Shown in pieces: positions 26,265-53,804 of a stretch of 64,000 nucleotides of DNA. Source of the stretch: Gammaproteobacteria bacterium (lineage in GTDB: Bacteria > Pseudomonadota > Gammaproteobacteria > Eutrophobiales > Eutrophobiaceae); contig JANQJZ010000015.1 of the NCBI GenBank assembly GCA_028281365.1, positions 13,879 to 77,878 of the forward strand, in the 5' to 3' direction. Each line of letters opens with the position of its first letter. Within the stretch, counting starts at the first letter, position 1. The position numbers and the translations under genes were made by a program. Under the pieces are notes generated by a model. The model searched no databases and had not been told where the DNA came from. It saw only the letters and a program-made list of their open reading frames with translations.

Positions 26265-26672
26265 TTAATATGATTCTCTCTGATAGATTATTGGTGAATC
26301 ATTATCTCGATAACCGGTATTGTTGCTCTCACCAGCCTCCGTTTTTTGATCATCATCAACCACTCCGGGTCCGGATTCATTCATCTTACCATTGCCTTGC
26401 AGTTGTTTTTCTATAATTTCCGGTTGCTGTTTACTCACTATCATATCTCCGATCCACCATGCTGCACTTGCAAAACCACCCGCTAATAATAAAACGATCC
26501 ACCACGGTATTTTGTTCAGGCTTTTTTGAGTCCTGGTTCTCTTTGCATGAAGTAGTAACCTGCTTTCAATAGTCGACAGTCTTGATTGGTCGGCGTCAGG
26601 CATGGATTCATAAACCTGTACAATCAGGTGTTCAACCTCTGACTCTGAAACAGGTGGAAATTTATGTGTCAC
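26265..26672 (-). CDS. Putative single-pass anti-sigma factor.
   Basis: 135 aa. Cytoplasmic N-terminus, one TM (WWIVLLLAGGFASAAWWI), short periplasmic tail. Overlaps the ECF sigma gene by 11 nt and ends 4 nt before the giant gene. Confidence 0.5.
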   Translation of the reverse strand: MTHKFPPVSESEVEHLIVQVYESMPDADQSRLSTIESRLLLHAKRTRTQKSLNKIPWWIVLLLAGGFASAAWWIGDMIVSKQQPEIIEKQLQGNGKMNESGPGVVDDDQKTEAGESNNTGYRDNDSPIIYQRESY

Positions 26673-27195
26673 TTGAGTCCTCTTGCCATCGCTGCTTCAG
26701 CTTATTAATGATGGCTGCACATTGTCTACGTACTGTGCCTTCCGGTAATTCCAGCATTGTTGCGATCTCTTTATGTGTTAACCCAACTCTATAACGCATG
26801 AACAACAGATTTTGTTCATCCTGGGGAAGTTTTTTTATTAATCTTTCAAGATAAAGTTGTTGATCCTTATATTCAGGATCCTGGCCCGCTTGTTGTTCTA
26901 TATCTATATCAATATTATCGACAGGTGACGCTTTCTCTCTACGATAAGCATCAATATGTAAATTGATCGCTATTCGATATAACAACGCTTTGGGAGATCG
27001 TAAATCTTTACAAACAACCTGAATAAATTTAAGAAAAGCATCCGCAAGCAGGTCATACGCGGCATCCGGATTACACCCCCTGTTTTTTAAAAATTGCCAC
27101 AGACGAGGTGACTCGGAACGATAAAAGCGGCTGAATGCATTTGTATCTGCATCTTTACAATATTGTTCGAGTAATTGTTTCGAATTGTCCTGCAT
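26662..27195 (-). CDS. ECF-type RNA polymerase sigma-70 family factor.
   Basis: 177 aa. Region 2 (AAYDLLADAFLKFIQ...LYRIAINLHIDAYRR) and region 4 HTH (LTHKEIATMLELPEGTVRRQ). Confidence 0.8.
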   Translation of the reverse strand: MQDNSKQLLEQYCKDADTNAFSRFYRSESPRLWQFLKNRGCNPDAAYDLLADAFLKFIQVVCKDLRSPKALLYRIAINLHIDAYRREKASPVDNIDIDIEQQAGQDPEYKDQQLYLERLIKKLPQDEQNLLFMRYRVGLTHKEIATMLELPEGTVRRQCAAIINKLKQRWQEDSSDT

Positions 27196-49269: not shown

Positions 49270-49914
49270 TTATCTATCCGTTGTACTTGCTGGTCGGTCT
49301 GTAATTCTATCCGTTGTCCTGTCTCTTTTTTGTTGCATAAATCGACGTCTTTCTTCTTTAGACATATTTCTTAGTCGTTCTCTTAAAGCCTTACGTTCTT
49401 CCTCAGGTAAACTCTGCATATATTCACGCATCTTCTTGCGTTTGTTTTTTATCTTCTTACGAAAAGCCTTACGTTCTTCCGGTGACATGCTTTGAAACTT
49501 TTCTCTAAGTTCCCTGCGTTTTTCTTCAGGTAAATTCTTAAACCAGGACTGCCTGTTCCTGATTCTTTGCTGCTGTTCCGGTGATAATTCCTGAAACCGT
49601 TGAAAACGATCCCTTATCTTCTGTTTCTGATCTGAATCCATGGATTGCCAGCGCTGCATGCGTTGTTTGGCCTTTTCGCGTTGTTCATCGGACATCTGAT
49701 CCCAACGGCTGGCGCCTCTTTGTAATCGCTGCTGACGTTTGGCAGGCAATTCATCCCAACTGTCCTTAAAATCCTTCAACAGATTTTGTTCATCTGCTGA
49801 TAATGAATCCCAGGCGACACCTTCTTCGGCAAATATATTTGCTGAAAATAGAAAACAAAATAATAAAATTATCGTTAATCTAATTTTCATTTTCAGCCTC
49901 AATAACCGTTTCAA
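49270..49914 (-). CDS. DUF3106-like secreted protein with a repetitive Arg/Gln/Glu-rich helical region.
   Basis: 214 aa. Signal peptide. Repeated motif xQRxxxxRWxxMSxEQRxK (RWDQMSDEQREKAKQRMQRWQSMDSDQKQK...). Confidence 0.55.
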   Translation of the reverse strand: MKRLLRLKMKIRLTIILLFCFLFSANIFAEEGVAWDSLSADEQNLLKDFKDSWDELPAKRQQRLQRGASRWDQMSDEQREKAKQRMQRWQSMDSDQKQKIRDRFQRFQELSPEQQQRIRNRQSWFKNLPEEKRRELREKFQSMSPEERKAFRKKIKNKRKKMREYMQSLPEEERKALRERLRNMSKEERRRFMQQKRDRTTDRITDRPASTTDR

Positions 49915-50122
49915 TTAATGATTCAATTTCATCATCTTCTAAATCAGCAGGATCAATCCATTCACCTTCTTCTGTTTCCCATTCACCCAGAAACTCCAAA
50001 AACTCTATCGTTGGGTTGTTATCCTCTGTTACTTGTTGTTCTGCAAATAAGAGTGAATATGAACAAAATAACAACATGGCACAGGGTTTAACCAAATAAT
50101 GCTTCATCTTCGAGCCATTCAT
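49880..50122 (-). CDS. Small acidic secreted peptide.
   Basis: About 75-80 aa. Signal peptide MKHYLVKPCAMLLFCSYSLLFA then a highly acidic tail (EEGEWIDPADLEDDEIESLIETVIEAENEN). It sits between the anti-sigma and DUF3106 genes. Confidence 0.35.
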   Translation of the reverse strand: MNGSKMKHYLVKPCAMLLFCSYSLLFAEQQVTEDNNPTIEFLEFLGEWETEEGEWIDPADLEDDEIESLIETVIEAENEN

Positions 50123-50507
50123 AAAATTCCAGATCTTCGTATAACTCCAGGTTATCGGAAGATGAGATTAGATCCAGATCATCAATTGGTGTCATCTGTG
50201 AGGTATCAGGTGAATTCAATAGAATCATTATTGCAAAGACCATAACACAAGCTGTTGCTAAAGCGCCTGACATAAGACCAAACCAGTTAAGTGATCTATC
50301 CTCAGTCTGTTCTATAGCTCGACTACGAACTTGTCGAATTCTGGACAAGGTTTGTGCATCCAGACTGTCAACACTATCATCCAGCGTCTGTTTGATATTT
50401 ACAGCTAATTTGTCTTTGTCATGTTTATTCATAATAAAATTATTACCAATGCTCACCCAGTTTCTCTCGTAAGCTGTGTATTGCTCTTGAGTAATGCGTT
50501 TTGACAC
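50088..50507 (-). CDS. Putative single-TM anti-sigma factor. The likely true start is an internal Met near 50432.
   Basis: Cytoplasmic N-domain, TM (LMSGALATACVMVFAIMILL), short periplasmic tail. Immediately downstream of the ECF sigma gene and overlapping it. Confidence 0.5.
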   Translation of the reverse strand: MSKRITQEQYTAYERNWVSIGNNFIMNKHDKDKLAVNIKQTLDDSVDSLDAQTLSRIRQVRSRAIEQTEDRSLNWFGLMSGALATACVMVFAIMILLNSPDTSQMTPIDDLDLISSSDNLELYEDLEFYEWLEDEALFG

Positions 50508-50916
50508 TTCCGCTTGAACATTTCATCGCCCTTGCTGTTTCATCAACACTATACCCTTCCCATATCCTTAATAAAAACGCCTGCTGTTGACGTAACGGTA
50601 ATTCATGTAATGCATGATCCAGTTCATCGATTCGTTTATCTGCCTGCAATAATTGTTCGGGTGTTCTTGCGCTTTCATCTTCAGCCGATTGTACAAGATC
50701 TTCCTGTTCGCCATCTTTACTGCCAAACCAGATACGAAATTTATTTCTAACCTGATTACGTCGATACCAATCATTGATTCGACTTTGCAATATGGTTGTA
50801 AACAATGGCCCCCATTCACTGGGATTACGTTGTGCATATTTCTCTACCAGTTTAAACATGGCATCCTGCAAAATGTCCAATGCCTCATCCCGATTGCCGG
50901 TCGCGATCATCGCCAT
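50443..50916 (-). CDS. ECF-type sigma-70 family factor. The N-terminus is possibly extended by about 20 codons to a non-ATG start.
   Basis: 157 aa from the first ATG. Region 2.2 ALDILQDAMFKLVEKY and region 4 HTH (YSVDETARAMKCSSGSVKTHYSRA). The in-frame upstream sequence TLESRRELDTFLASVEKRAYR encodes region 2.1 but carries no ATG. Confidence 0.75.
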   Translation of the reverse strand: MAMIATGNRDEALDILQDAMFKLVEKYAQRNPSEWGPLFTTILQSRINDWYRRNQVRNKFRIWFGSKDGEQEDLVQSAEDESARTPEQLLQADKRIDELDHALHELPLRQQQAFLLRIWEGYSVDETARAMKCSSGSVKTHYSRAIHSLREKLGEHW

Positions 50917-51069
50917 ACGATAAGCCCGCTTTTCAACACTGGCAAGAAAGGTATCCAGTTCACGCCGAGATTCCAGTGTTTATCCCCTTTTATAAAAACT
51001 CTCAAGAAAATGAAATTCATCTTATAACTAACGTAGCCAGACACTTCCGGCTACGTCATTATCGAATGA

Positions 51070-51738
51070 TTAACGGGTTCGGGCAACGCGTGCACGTCGT
51101 TGATTAACATTTGCACGGTCACGAACATTTTCCCTTCTGTCCCTGACATCTTCCCGACGATCACGAACATCTTCCCGGCGGTCAGCAATATCTTCCCTCC
51201 TGTCTCTCACATCTTCACGTCGATCACGAACATCTTCCCTTCTATCCTGATACCATTCCCTTGTACCCGGCTCGTAATTTGTTCGTGCATCCCGGATATC
51301 TTCTCGACGATCGCGAATATCTTCACGTCGATCAGCCACATCCTCGCGACGATCTCTTATATCTTCGCGTCGATCAGCACGATCCTCCCGACGGTCGCGA
51401 ATATCCTCACGTTCGTCACGATTCAACCGACCATCGCCGTCATCATCAAAACGCTCAATTCGATTCTCGCGTCTAATTTCACGAACAGCTTGTCGTTCAT
51501 CCTGACTCAATCGCCCGTCACCATCTGTATCAGCACGTTCAAATCTTTCTGCTCGAGTCAGACGATCTGTATCTGTTGATTCATCATCTTCGGCGATTAC
51601 TGGTGAGCTAAGTGCAACACCTAATAGCAATATGCTTATTTTTTTTAAATTCTGTACTTGCATTGTTGTTATCCTCCTTACGGATATTCTGATTACAACT
51701 CTACTAACGCATGGGGTATCATTCGGTTGACAAAACAA
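51070..51738 (-). CDS. Secreted EF-hand calcium-binding protein with tandem DRREDxR heptad repeats. Probable start at the Met of MQVQNLKKISILLL near position 51663.
   Basis: Signal peptide. Two canonical EF-hand loops DTDGDGRLSQDE and DDDGDGRLNRDE. More than 14 tandem heptads (DRREDIR/DRREDVA...) encoded by 21-bp DNA repeats. Confidence 0.6.
   Translation of the reverse strand: MFCQPNDTPCVSRVVIRISVRRITTMQVQNLKKISILLLGVALSSPVIAEDDESTDTDRLTRAERFERADTDGDGRLSQDERQAVREIRRENRIERFDDDGDGRLNRDEREDIRDRREDRADRREDIRDRREDVADRREDIRDRREDIRDARTNYEPGTREWYQDRREDVRDRREDVRDRREDIADRREDVRDRREDVRDRRENVRDRANVNQRRARVARTR
51100..51460. repeat. Coding tandem repeat array with 21-bp periodicity inside the EF-hand protein gene.
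   Basis: Visible iterations of units like cgatcacgaacatcttcccg / cgatcagccacatcctcgcga. The plus-strand shadow ORF 51100..51579 translates as an NIFP-type repeat, which is an artefact of the same periodicity. Confidence 0.7.
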
Positions 51739-51867: not shown

Positions 51868-52353
51868 TTGATGAAGATCGTTTTATACATTGTAATAGGG
51901 TTGATAGTTGGCAGCATAGGTGGCTTTGGTGCTGGCATTATTGCCTTCCCCTATTTATTTCCTCCTCCACCTGTTAATGAACAGGTTGCTGATAAGGAAA
52001 CCAAACAAGTTGTTGCGACCGGGCAATTTATTCATGCAGATCCCTCTGACCCGGTACACTTTGGTGAAGGTGGTGTAACAATTTATAAAGACTTATTACA
52101 TCTCGAAGCTAACTTTAAGGTCGGTCCCGGCCCCAAGTATCATGTCTACCTTGTTCCTGATGGAAATATTACTCCGGATACCGATGTACAAAACACCATG
52201 TATGTCGATCTTGGCAGGTTAAAGGCATTTGAAGGTAGTCAGAATTATCCAATCCCCGAAGGGGTTAATTTAAGCAAATACCAATCCACTGTTGTCTGGT
52301 GTGAACAATTCAATGTTTTGATCTCGCCAGCAACGCTAGATTTCAAAAATTAA
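51868..52353 (+). CDS. DM13-domain-like protein with an N-terminal membrane anchor.
   Basis: 161 aa. N-terminal TM. The C-terminal region (FGEGGVTIYKD...HLEANFKVGPGPKYHVYLVPDG) resembles a DM13 beta-domain. Confidence 0.45.
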   Translation: MMKIVLYIVIGLIVGSIGGFGAGIIAFPYLFPPPPVNEQVADKETKQVVATGQFIHADPSDPVHFGEGGVTIYKDLLHLEANFKVGPGPKYHVYLVPDGNITPDTDVQNTMYVDLGRLKAFEGSQNYPIPEGVNLSKYQSTVVWCEQFNVLISPATLDFKN

Positions 52354-53333
52354 TTTATTAACACTGCAGCGCCCTGAACCTGACCCGAACGTAATTGTTC
52401 CAGAGCCTTATTCGCATCACTTAAAGGAAACGTCTGTGTTTCAGTCTTGACGGATATTTTATCCATCAGTTTTAAAAACTCTTCACCATCCCTGCGTGTT
52501 AAATTGGCTACCGATTTAACCGTTCGTTCCCCCCAAAGTATATCGTAGGGAAAACCTGGTATATCACTCATATGAATTCCGGCACAAACAACAATACCGC
52601 CTTTCTTGACTGCTTTTAGTGCTAATGGAACCAGTTCTCCTACAGGGGCATATAAAATAGCAGCATCTAATGGAACAGGTGCAGGCTTATTTGAATCACC
52701 TGCCCATTTTGCACCGAGTTGTTTAGCAAAGTTTTGGGCTTCTGCATCTCTAGGACTGGTAAACGCGTAGACTTCTTTTCCCTGTTGAATCGCTACCTGC
52801 GTAATAATATGTGCCGCTGCACCGAAACCATAGATACCAAGCCGTTGACTATCATTCGTCATTTTGTACGAGCGATAACCAATTAAACCGGCACAAAGCA
52901 AAGGTGCAACTTCAACATCATTCATCGCATTATTTAGAGGAAAAACAAAATGTTGATTTGCGATCGTGTATTCGGCAAATCCACCATCAATGTGATAACC
53001 GGTAAAGGATGCACTATTACACAGGTTTTCATTGTTACTTAAACAATACTCACATTTACCACAGGTAAAACCTAACCAGGGCACACCAACACGGTCACCC
53101 GTTTTTAAATCGTTAACTTCGTCTCCACAAGAAACCACATGACCAACTATTTCGTGGCCAGGGATCAAAGGCAGTTTGGGTTGCTTGAGATCACCGTCAC
53201 AGACATGTAGATCGGTTCGACAAACCGCACATGCAGAGATTTTAATTAAAACATCCTGTGTTCCAGGTTCGGGGATAGGACATTCATCAAGGACAAGAGG
53301 TTTGCCCTGTTCATGTAAGCGCATTGCTTTCAT
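52350..53333 (-). CDS. Zinc-dependent alcohol dehydrogenase, MDR family, AdhP-like.
   Basis: 327 aa. Catalytic Zn motif CAVCRTDLHV...GHEIVGHV. Structural Zn Cys cluster CGKCEYC. Rossmann GFGAAAH. Confidence 0.85.
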   Translation of the reverse strand: MKAMRLHEQGKPLVLDECPIPEPGTQDVLIKISACAVCRTDLHVCDGDLKQPKLPLIPGHEIVGHVVSCGDEVNDLKTGDRVGVPWLGFTCGKCEYCLSNNENLCNSASFTGYHIDGGFAEYTIANQHFVFPLNNAMNDVEVAPLLCAGLIGYRSYKMTNDSQRLGIYGFGAAAHIITQVAIQQGKEVYAFTSPRDAEAQNFAKQLGAKWAGDSNKPAPVPLDAAILYAPVGELVPLALKAVKKGGIVVCAGIHMSDIPGFPYDILWGERTVKSVANLTRRDGEEFLKLMDKISVKTETQTFPLSDANKALEQLRSGQVQGAAVLIN

Positions 53334-53456: not shown

Positions 53457-53804
53457 ATGAATATGGCTTCAGAAAATAACTCAAATGATATGCGGGACAA
53501 GGGTCGAGTCCAGGCCATGATCGATATTTCGACCTATATTGATAACAAAAAACTCGATACCTATATGCGTAATTTGTCCTGTAGCGGGATTATGATTGTT
53601 GATGACCCTGATACAGACTATGAACCTGGTCGGGAATGTAAGATAGCGATACCTCTGGATGAATCAAGAAGCATAGAACTGGATGCAAAAATTGTATGGC
53701 GAAAAGATGGTCTGGTTGGACTCAATTTTCCCAACATAGATGAATCAGCATCATCAAATTTAAATCAATTAATATTGAGACAAATCAATAATCCATCCAG
53801 CTAG
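53457..53804 (+). CDS. Stand-alone PilZ-domain c-di-GMP receptor.
   Basis: 115 aa. PilZ motifs RDKGR (RxxxR) and NLSCSG (D/NxSxxG) at the expected spacing. Confidence 0.7.
   Translation: MNMASENNSNDMRDKGRVQAMIDISTYIDNKKLDTYMRNLSCSGIMIVDDPDTDYEPGRECKIAIPLDESRSIELDAKIVWRKDGLVGLNFPNIDESASSNLNQLILRQINNPSS

Follow-up and report, generated by a model that had tools for sequence, protein, structure and literature searches.

A predicted exported EF-hand protein with two matched arms of charged heptads at the head of a putative ECF sigma factor operon

The DRRED gene and its product

We analyzed a 64,000-nt stretch of DNA from a Gammaproteobacteria bacterium (NCBI GenBank assembly GCA_028281365.1, contig JANQJZ010000015.1, positions 13,879 to 77,878 of the forward strand), called here the window, whose numbering is used throughout. 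Its minus strand carries a gene for a small, predicted exported protein, which we named DRRED after its DRREDxR heptads. Gene order and motifs place the DRRED gene as the promoter-proximal (first) gene of an operon for an extracytoplasmic function (ECF) sigma factor (Table 1). The product has a signal peptide, a pair of EF-hands and two arms of six heptads each, joined by a linker and closed by a basic tail.

The DRRED gene starts with an ATG at 51663 and stops with a TAA ending at 51070. A preliminary description of this DNA had given the open reading frame (ORF) as 51070-51738. The open frame itself held, on the minus strand and initiated by TTG, whereas the start did not: the ATG at 51663, with its AAGGAGG, is favoured, and the 25 additional N-terminal codons of the longer ORF overlap the candidate promoter. 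In-frame translation of the repeat region, on which that description depended, agreed with the divergence from four orthologs, which was ~0.3, 0.24 and 0.55 at codon positions 1, 2 and 3. By this measure the reading frame is genuinely coding and under purifying selection. A protein search with DRRED gave 269 homologs at E <= 1e-3, the top one with 60% identity. An ORF of 159 amino acids (aa) on the opposite strand (51100-51579, plus strand, MINICTVTNIFPSVPDIFP...) overlies the repeat. We did not retain it as a gene, because it is most likely a shadow ORF from stop-free repeat codons.

The N-terminus of the protein, MQVQNLKKISILLLGVALSSPVIA, followed after the predicted cleavage by EDDE, had a K-rich n-region, a hydrophobic core and a small-residue c-region, and was without a lipobox Cys. 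AlphaFold2 (AF2) predicted a separate N-terminal helix there, and then a low-confidence stretch at residues 20-28. This signal-peptide-like N-terminus is in line with the secretion proposed in the preliminary description, and so are the two canonical EF-hand loops. We required D at position 1, D/N/S at 3 and 5, G at 6, a hydrophobic residue at 8, E at 12, and flanking helices; both 12-residue loops satisfy every consensus position, and AF2 places helices on either side of both.

From the Pfam EF-hand models, EF-hand_5 matched with 26.8 bits (cut-off 25.9), and EF-hand_1, EF-hand_6 and EF-hand_7 scored marginally under their cut-offs. A phmmer search of the PDB aligned the region to the calcineurin B EF-hand pair (E 4.5e-4). 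The top Foldseek match in the PDB was polcalcin Che a 3 (probability 0.85, E 0.039), a weak match that covers the EF-hand part only. A match to XopAW was rejected, being weak (21.8 bits against a cut-off of 120) and confined to the EF-hands. Database support for the predicted EF-hands is modest but consistent, and the pair would be expected to bind Ca2+. Taken by itself, the EF-hand part of the protein is ordinary.

Where at least 14 tandem heptads had been counted before, we recognized two arms of six clean heptads with a non-repeat linker between them, and one degenerate heptad unit 3' of arm 2. The C-terminal tail, ending in R[VI]A[RG]TR, was kept in the orthologs. AF2 predicted two long helices, at residues 82-129 and 135-196, mostly with a predicted local distance difference test (pLDDT) > 90 and with a break at 130-134. 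The exiting helix of EF-hand 2 was continuous with arm 1, as one helix (82-129). When the hairpin was modeled alone, the secondary structure was the same and the predicted template modeling score (pTM) was 0.46, not higher than in the full-length run. The arms consist of ~80% charged residues and have net charges of -3 and 0. In summary for the protein, the preliminary description stood for export, EF-hands and in-frame heptads; the two-arm hairpin layout and the sigma-operon context had been missed.

On a helical wheel, which we reasoned from the heptad profile of the family, three continuous stripes emerge, of D1/D5, of R3/R7 and of R2/V6. Association through charge-complementary faces is speculation at this stage. 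The same holds for a linear antiparallel charge zipper of self-complementary RRED units, which we did not pursue, since helix packing is not a residue-by-residue ladder.

A widespread family with matched arms

A search with the hairpin segment among 1.84 billion proteins gave 318 representative clusters at E <= 1e-3, of which 56 reached E <= 1e-10. In genome scans, the closest members came from Gammaproteobacteria metagenome-assembled genomes (MAGs). Further members were found in Omnitrophota, Planctomycetota, Chitinophagaceae, Saprospiraceae, Gemmatimonadaceae, Elusimicrobia, Nitrospirae, Chloroflexi and others. The shared module consists of a signal peptide, arm 1 made of D[RK][RKAL]E[DN][VIRK]R heptads (profile derived from 1040 heptads), a linker, arm 2 and a basic/Gly-rich tail. 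As marks of the family we took a signal peptide, arm 1, a Gly/Pro linker of 9 or 15 residues and an arm 2 of equal length. The protein studied here shows all of them, with six heptads, a 15-residue linker and six heptads.

The N-terminal additions in the family are variable: EF-hand pairs, a coiled-coil segment, 'NPEKF' repeats, or none. Bacteroidota members without an addition are 100-150 aa long. The combination of EF-hands with a heptad array, called unusual in the preliminary description, is not a one-off, because an EF loop was present in 51 of the 267 members with at least four heptads, and two EF loops in 37 of them. Many Omnitrophota and Planctomycetota members (L009, L012, L023, L026, L031, L034, L054 and others; the labels L001-L095 denote genome or MAG loci carrying DRRED genes) end in a Gly-rich motif, GVRDHGxGxGxGKGQGGxxR, which the DRRED protein of the window does not have.

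No model in Pfam or NCBIfam covered the heptad hairpin module, and when we searched the literature, nothing relevant came up on the repeat peptide, DUF3619/DUF3106 or the promoter motif. On the strength of these searches, the hairpin module is an unannotated and undescribed protein family, spread across many phyla.

The strongest evidence for pairing of the arms came from their lengths. We compared 218 arm-linker-arm units from about 300 proteins. The heptad counts of arm 1 and arm 2 were equal in 157 units (72%) and differed by at most one in 92%, over a range of 2-10 heptads (r = 0.74). When the arm counts were permuted (10,000 trials), on average 22% of the units were equal, with a maximum of 33%. 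Almost all linkers fell into a class of 9 residues (DAxHDGGxx, 182/218 units) and a class of 15 residues (DAxHNYxPGTxxxRR, 25/218), the latter including the linker of the protein studied here. Because their heptad counts covary, the two arms probably pair with each other.

An old and degenerate 21-bp repeat

The DNA below the arms had been described as a near-perfect 21-bp tandem array. Tandem Repeats Finder contradicted this, with only 67-68% matches at period 21; period 63 gave 85% (arm 2) and period 42 gave 79% (arm 1). The mean pairwise identity of the twelve clean units was 67% for nucleotides and 81% for amino acids. Identical residues were encoded by the same codon in 43% of the cases, with all six Arg codons in use, and the longest exact direct repeat in the array measured 19 nt. 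We therefore did not assign the array to the simple-sequence contingency loci, which are defined by near-identical units.

Heptads at the same position were 0.70-0.81 alike across species, and different heptads within one gene 0.65-0.67. Because same-position heptads resemble each other more than heptads within a gene do, there is no concerted evolution. The 6+6 layout was retained in four orthologs with ~65% protein identity. A metagenome scan for strain-level relatives gave no near-identical strain (best 57-59% identity). The changes in copy number by slippage or recombination that had been anticipated are unsupported at short timescales, given the degenerate units, the position-specific conservation and the stable 6+6 layout. 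Over long evolutionary distances the copy number ranges from 2 to 10 heptads per arm, both arms shifting together, which points to a structural constraint and not to free slippage. From these comparisons we read the array as an old one that selection on the protein maintains, and not as a slippage-prone tract.

The sigma factor operon

The candidate promoter, TGTCAACC-N14-GCGTTA, was the sole match to this motif in the window. It was also present once directly upstream of the DRRED ortholog in L001-L005, L010, L011, L014 and L090, where the surrounding intergenic sequence has diverged among the loci. A conserved AAC-N16/17-CGT upstream and an adjacent sigma/anti-sigma pair, as expected for an ECF regulon, are both found here. 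The motif likely acts as a promoter, and transcription of the DRRED gene would be sigma-dependent. A variant, TAAACCTTT-N13/14-CGTCTA, was found ahead of the DRRED gene at several loci of the Omnitrophota and Planctomycetota type (L013, L042, L053, L056, L067, L055 and L095).

The stem-loop behind the DRRED stop codon had a minimum free energy of -28.8 kcal/mol (z = -4.5 against shuffles). At the equivalent position, 7/7 orthologous loci had a strong stem-loop, all with different sequences, and in L005 and L010 with T-rich tails. Such a stem-loop would lead to partial termination, and hence to an excess of the hairpin protein over the sigma factor. No Rfam family reached its gathering score anywhere in the window.

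The sigma factor gene had no ATG, GTG or TTG where its orthologs in L001, L002, L011 and L014 start (GGAGATAA ATG CTG CAA). At this site the window reads GGGGATAA ACA CTG GAA and L005 reads AGA CTG GAC, both following an in-frame stop. This suggests that the sigma factor starts at CTG 50974-50976, or else at ATG 50916, losing ~20 residues of region 2.

Among the downstream products, the DUF3619 protein carries an acidic periplasmic tail (window 50088-50204) with a net charge of -13, and its position and topology are consistent with an anti-sigma factor. The orthologous operons have kept the small acidic protein, likewise placed between anti-sigma and DUF3106. One motif of this protein, FLEFLGEWETEEGEW, is similar to LEFYEWLE in the periplasmic tail of the anti-sigma factor, and the protein may be a mimic of this tail. 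The DRRED protein itself gave no match to DUF3106 (PF11304).

Table 1 Features of the DRRED gene and the putative sigma factor operon in the window.
Feature	Position	Strand	Basis
Candidate ECF-type promoter, TGTCAACC-N14-GCGTTA (AAC-N16-CGT), 42 nt 5' of the ATG	51705..51732	-	motif scan, orthologs
Ribosome-binding site AAGGAGG, 9 nt 5' of the DRRED ATG	51673..51679	-	read from sequence
DRRED gene, coding sequence including stop, 197 aa	51070..51663	-	translation, ortholog divergence, homologs
Predicted Sec-type signal peptide, aa 1-24, predicted cleavage after VIA	51592..51663	-	read from sequence
Predicted EF-hand loop 1, DTDGDGRLSQDE, aa 45-56	51496..51531	-	Pfam EF-hand_5 (residues 40-56), calcineurin B match
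Predicted EF-hand loop 2, DDDGDGRLNRDE, aa 73-84	51412..51447	-	all canonical positions
Arm 1, six heptads (DEREDIR, DRREDRA, DRREDIR, DRREDVA, DRREDIR, DRREDIR), aa 83-124	51292..51417	-	unit analysis, AF2
Linker/turn DARTNYEPGTREWYQ, 15 residues, aa 125-139	51247..51291	-	AF2 helix break
Arm 2, six heptads (DRREDVR twice, DRREDIA, DRREDVR twice, DRRENVR), aa 140-181	51121..51246	-	unit analysis, AF2
Basic C-terminal tail DRANVNQRRARVARTR, net +5	51073..51120	-	ortholog comparison
Stem-loop directly 3' of the DRRED stop, terminator/attenuator-like	51017..51069	-	folding, ortholog position
ECF sigma factor, NF006550/PRK09047 type, probable start CTG 50974-50976	50443..50976	-	NCBIfam 7.8e-58, Pfam Sigma70_r4_2, ortholog starts
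DUF3619 single-pass anti-sigma-like protein, probable start ATG 50432	50088..50507	-	Pfam DUF3619 1.7e-6
Small, predicted secreted, very acidic protein, mature net -21	49880..50122	-	kept in orthologous operons
Last gene of the module, DUF3106 protein, basic, helical-repeat and predicted periplasmic, mature net +17	49270..49914	-	Pfam DUF3106 5e-29

The module in relatives and distant phyla

In the close relatives (L001-L005, L010, L011, L014 and L090) the genes follow the order DRRED, sigma, anti-sigma, DUF3106, all on one strand. An additional multi-EF-hand gene lies between DRRED and sigma in L001 (5590-6171) and L002 (5499-5891), and also in L011 and L014 (EF-hand_5 2e-11). The closest relatives have a divergent CDF cation-efflux gene upstream. 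Neither the CDF nor the multi-EF-hand gene is present in the window.

Over all 80 genome loci, a sigma match was obtained in 27, and in 24 of these it lay within 2.5 kb, mostly adjoining on the same strand. Two arrangements recurred in distant phyla. Loci of the Omnitrophota and Planctomycetota type have DRRED, sigma and a membrane protein; other distant loci have sigma, a zf-HC2 anti-sigma factor, DUF3106 and then DRRED. In L036 and L079, DRRED-like repeats are fused to DUF3106-like motifs. The membrane protein encoded after sigma has, in about 25 linked loci, a short, strongly acidic extracytoplasmic tail with a net charge of -5 to -31 (examples are L009, L026, L028, L029, L040, L042, L047 and L065). 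Across phyla, and in both DUF3619- and zf-HC2-type proteins, these tails carry repeated amphipathic D/E-L-x-x-L-E motifs.

Comparison with known systems

Bacterial periplasmic calcium sensing is, to our knowledge, barely explored, and for most ECF sigma/anti-sigma pairs we know of no identified way of sensing the signal. The pairing of an EF-hand protein and an ECF sigma factor was first studied genetically in 2026 (PMC13171946). The study describes CaBP of Caulobacter vibrioides (CCNA_02838), a periplasmic protein of 133 aa that has three EF-hands and whose gene lies directly upstream of the one for the ECF sigma factor SigV (PMC13171946). The expression of CaBP and SigV is interdependent and responds to Ca2+ and pH, and a link through a membrane anti-sigma factor of unassigned identity was proposed (PMC13171946). 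Transcription of the two Caulobacter genes is independent, with the promoter of sigV located within cabp (PMC13171946).

CaBP and DRRED are both small, Sec-exported (for DRRED by prediction) EF-hand proteins with a gene directly upstream of an ECF sigma factor, a likeness of gene layout and features. They differ in that CaBP has no heptad hairpin, and that here the promoter lies upstream of the EF-hand gene and a stem-loop between the genes. For an ECF sigma factor that is paired with a periplasmic EF-hand protein there is one published analogue, CaBP-SigV; the hairpin module is undescribed.

The window has the trio of ECF sigma (NF006550, PRK09047 type), DUF3619 and DUF3106 downstream of DRRED, and the DRRED gene is added to this cluster only in some lineages. 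Our literature search found no paper on the cluster or on a DRRED partner.

CpxP and Spy are small, highly charged, all-helical periplasmic proteins that are strongly induced by their own envelope-stress system, and CpxP feeds back on its sensor, reportedly by electrostatic contact. The likeness to DRRED is a functional analogy only: their regulator is a two-component system and not an ECF sigma factor, and they have neither a heptad repeat nor EF-hands. In DRRED we found no LTXXQ/Metal_resist Pfam match at E <= 0.01 and no LTXXQ motif.

With EF-hand pair proteins such as calcineurin B, the polcalcins and the calmodulin lobes, DRRED has in common two 12-residue loops in a helix-loop-helix pair. 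Unlike these, it is predicted to be exported, its last EF helix is extended into a 48-residue repeat helix, and no hydrophobic target-binding cleft is evident. One arm resembles the ER/K single alpha-helix (SAH) of myosin VI and X. The arms of DRRED are instead Asp/Arg-based, strictly 7-periodic, bacterial and predicted to be exported, and two matched arms are joined by a conserved turn. We did not place DRRED among the ER/K helices, because its D-R-R-E-D-V-R period of seven is not built of blocks of ~4 Glu and ~4 Lys/Arg, and the matched arms argue for a partner helix.

Possible functions

With moderate confidence, we interpret DRRED as a Ca2+-binding periplasmic output or accessory protein of an envelope-stress ECF sigma module, with its arms paired and their charged hairpin as the part that does the work. 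The protein would be exported by Sec to the periplasm of a gammaproteobacterium-like host, where the N-terminal EF-hand pair would bind Ca2+. The exiting helix of EF-hand 2 would extend into a helix-turn-helix of two equal six-heptad DRREDxR arms, which would pair within one molecule as a hairpin or between two molecules as an antiparallel dimer. The gene would be part of an autoregulated operon under an ECF-type promoter, in the order DRRED, ECF sigma, DUF3619 anti-sigma, small acidic protein and DUF3106, and the stem-loop 3' of the DRRED stop would pass only part of the transcripts into the sigma gene. From its promoter-proximal place and the stem-loop, DRRED would be the main output of the module. 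It would probably also be a Ca2+- or ion-responsive accessory, feeding back through electrostatic helix-helix contacts with charged periplasmic parts. The gene, its domains, the family, the matching arm lengths, the promoter motif, the stem-loop and the synteny were observed directly, whereas Ca2+ binding, arm pairing, sigma dependence, attenuation and feedback are the steps that we infer. Both an effector role, protecting or buffering the envelope, and an accessory role, reporting the Ca2+ or ionic state to the anti-sigma factor, are possible. We lean to the accessory role because of the recurrent adjacency, the fusions and the CaBP-SigV precedent in Caulobacter.

Several observations weigh against this interpretation. 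No sigma match lay nearby in about 53 of the 80 loci, most of them minimal Bacteroidota forms, which argues that the hairpin also has a module-independent function. The neighbours of the sigma-less Bacteroidota members were lineage-specific housekeeping genes, which gave no functional clue. All sigma counts rest on one hidden Markov model (HMM), built for this analysis and of uncalibrated sensitivity. The arms are net neutral to slightly acidic, and the basic DUF3106 protein (+17) is a likelier partner of the acidic anti-sigma tail. Finally, a heptad with only ~0.65 hydrophobic residues does not make a classical coiled coil.

An effector-only protein, whose charged hairpin would by itself protect the envelope or buffer ions, being induced by the sigma factor and not signalling back to the anti-sigma factor, is fairly unlikely in our judgment. 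It could be hydrophilin- or LEA-like, or a low-affinity binder of cations and phosphate through the Asp and Arg stripes. Such a role would suit the hairpin-only proteins of 100-150 aa, which in many Bacteroidota and Gemmatimonadota have housekeeping neighbours and no sigma nearby. It would also suit arms that are ~80% charged and near net neutral, with D1/D5 and R3/R7 on separate stripes of the wheel (our own reasoning), and a CDF cation-efflux gene adjoining the orthologs in L001-L004; the first-gene position and the stem-loop fit a product made in excess. However, the tight sigma/anti-sigma adjacency recurs in several phyla and in two gene orders, and this, like the DUF3106-like fusions, fits a part of the module better than just any gene of the regulon. 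The EF-hand protein of Caulobacter, moreover, shows feedback on its sigma factor.

A further extension, that the DRRED hairpin is a new periplasmic sensing module, is unlikely. In this charge-patterned helix-turn-helix, the two equal arms would close on each other, or on the cognate anti-sigma factor's acidic tail, depending on Ca2+ or ions, and thereby gate the ECF sigma factor, with the EF-hand pair as one of several interchangeable input domains. If true, the hairpin would gate ECF sigma responses in many bacterial phyla. We regard as quite improbable that the arms stay unpaired, each a stable single alpha-helix of the ER/K type, serving as a rigid spacer or ruler that positions the EF-hand domain. 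The low pTM in both AF2 runs and the very few hydrophobic residues per heptad would agree with this. A spacer, however, leaves unexplained why the arm counts are equal far above expectation (72% against 22%, over a range of 2-10) and why the conserved Gly/Pro linker has exactly 9 or 15 residues. Also, by our own reading, Asp/Arg pairs at like-charge i/i+3 or i/i+4 spacing occur four times in the heptad, which sets it apart from E4K4-type helices. That DRRED is a contingency-type secreted protein, whose 21-bp array gains and loses units through slipped-strand mispairing or recombination, is exceedingly improbable. Distant orthologs do differ in their heptads (5 in P0016, 7 in P0039, 6+6 in the window, 8+8 in L010), and the 63-bp and 42-bp periodicities (79-85% identity) hint at old block duplications. 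Against it stand the 67% unit identity, the longest exact repeat of 19 nt, the scrambled codons, the conservation of positions between species in excess of the similarity within the gene, and arm lengths that are constrained to match.

Under the preferred interpretation as an output or accessory of the sigma module, the locus is compact and well delimited. It comprises a putative promoter and an EF-hand/hairpin protein, followed by an attenuator-like stem-loop, a sigma factor, an acidic-tailed anti-sigma factor and two more charged periplasmic proteins. Module variants in several phyla make the question of signal sensing testable. The matched-arm rule is a simple, checkable structural prediction for a family of a few hundred clusters without a database model. 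As a natural and almost fully charged helical hairpin, the module may also interest protein designers.

Other genes in the window

Divergent from the DRRED gene lies a gene with a DM13 domain (51868-52353, plus strand). Beyond it are a zinc alcohol dehydrogenase (52350-53333, minus strand) and a PilZ protein (53457-53804, plus strand). L001 and L002, both MAG relatives, retain the order of the alcohol dehydrogenase and PilZ genes, and their corresponding small ORF had no Pfam match. The window also encodes a second ECF-like sigma factor (26662-27195, minus strand; sigma HMM 3e-38).

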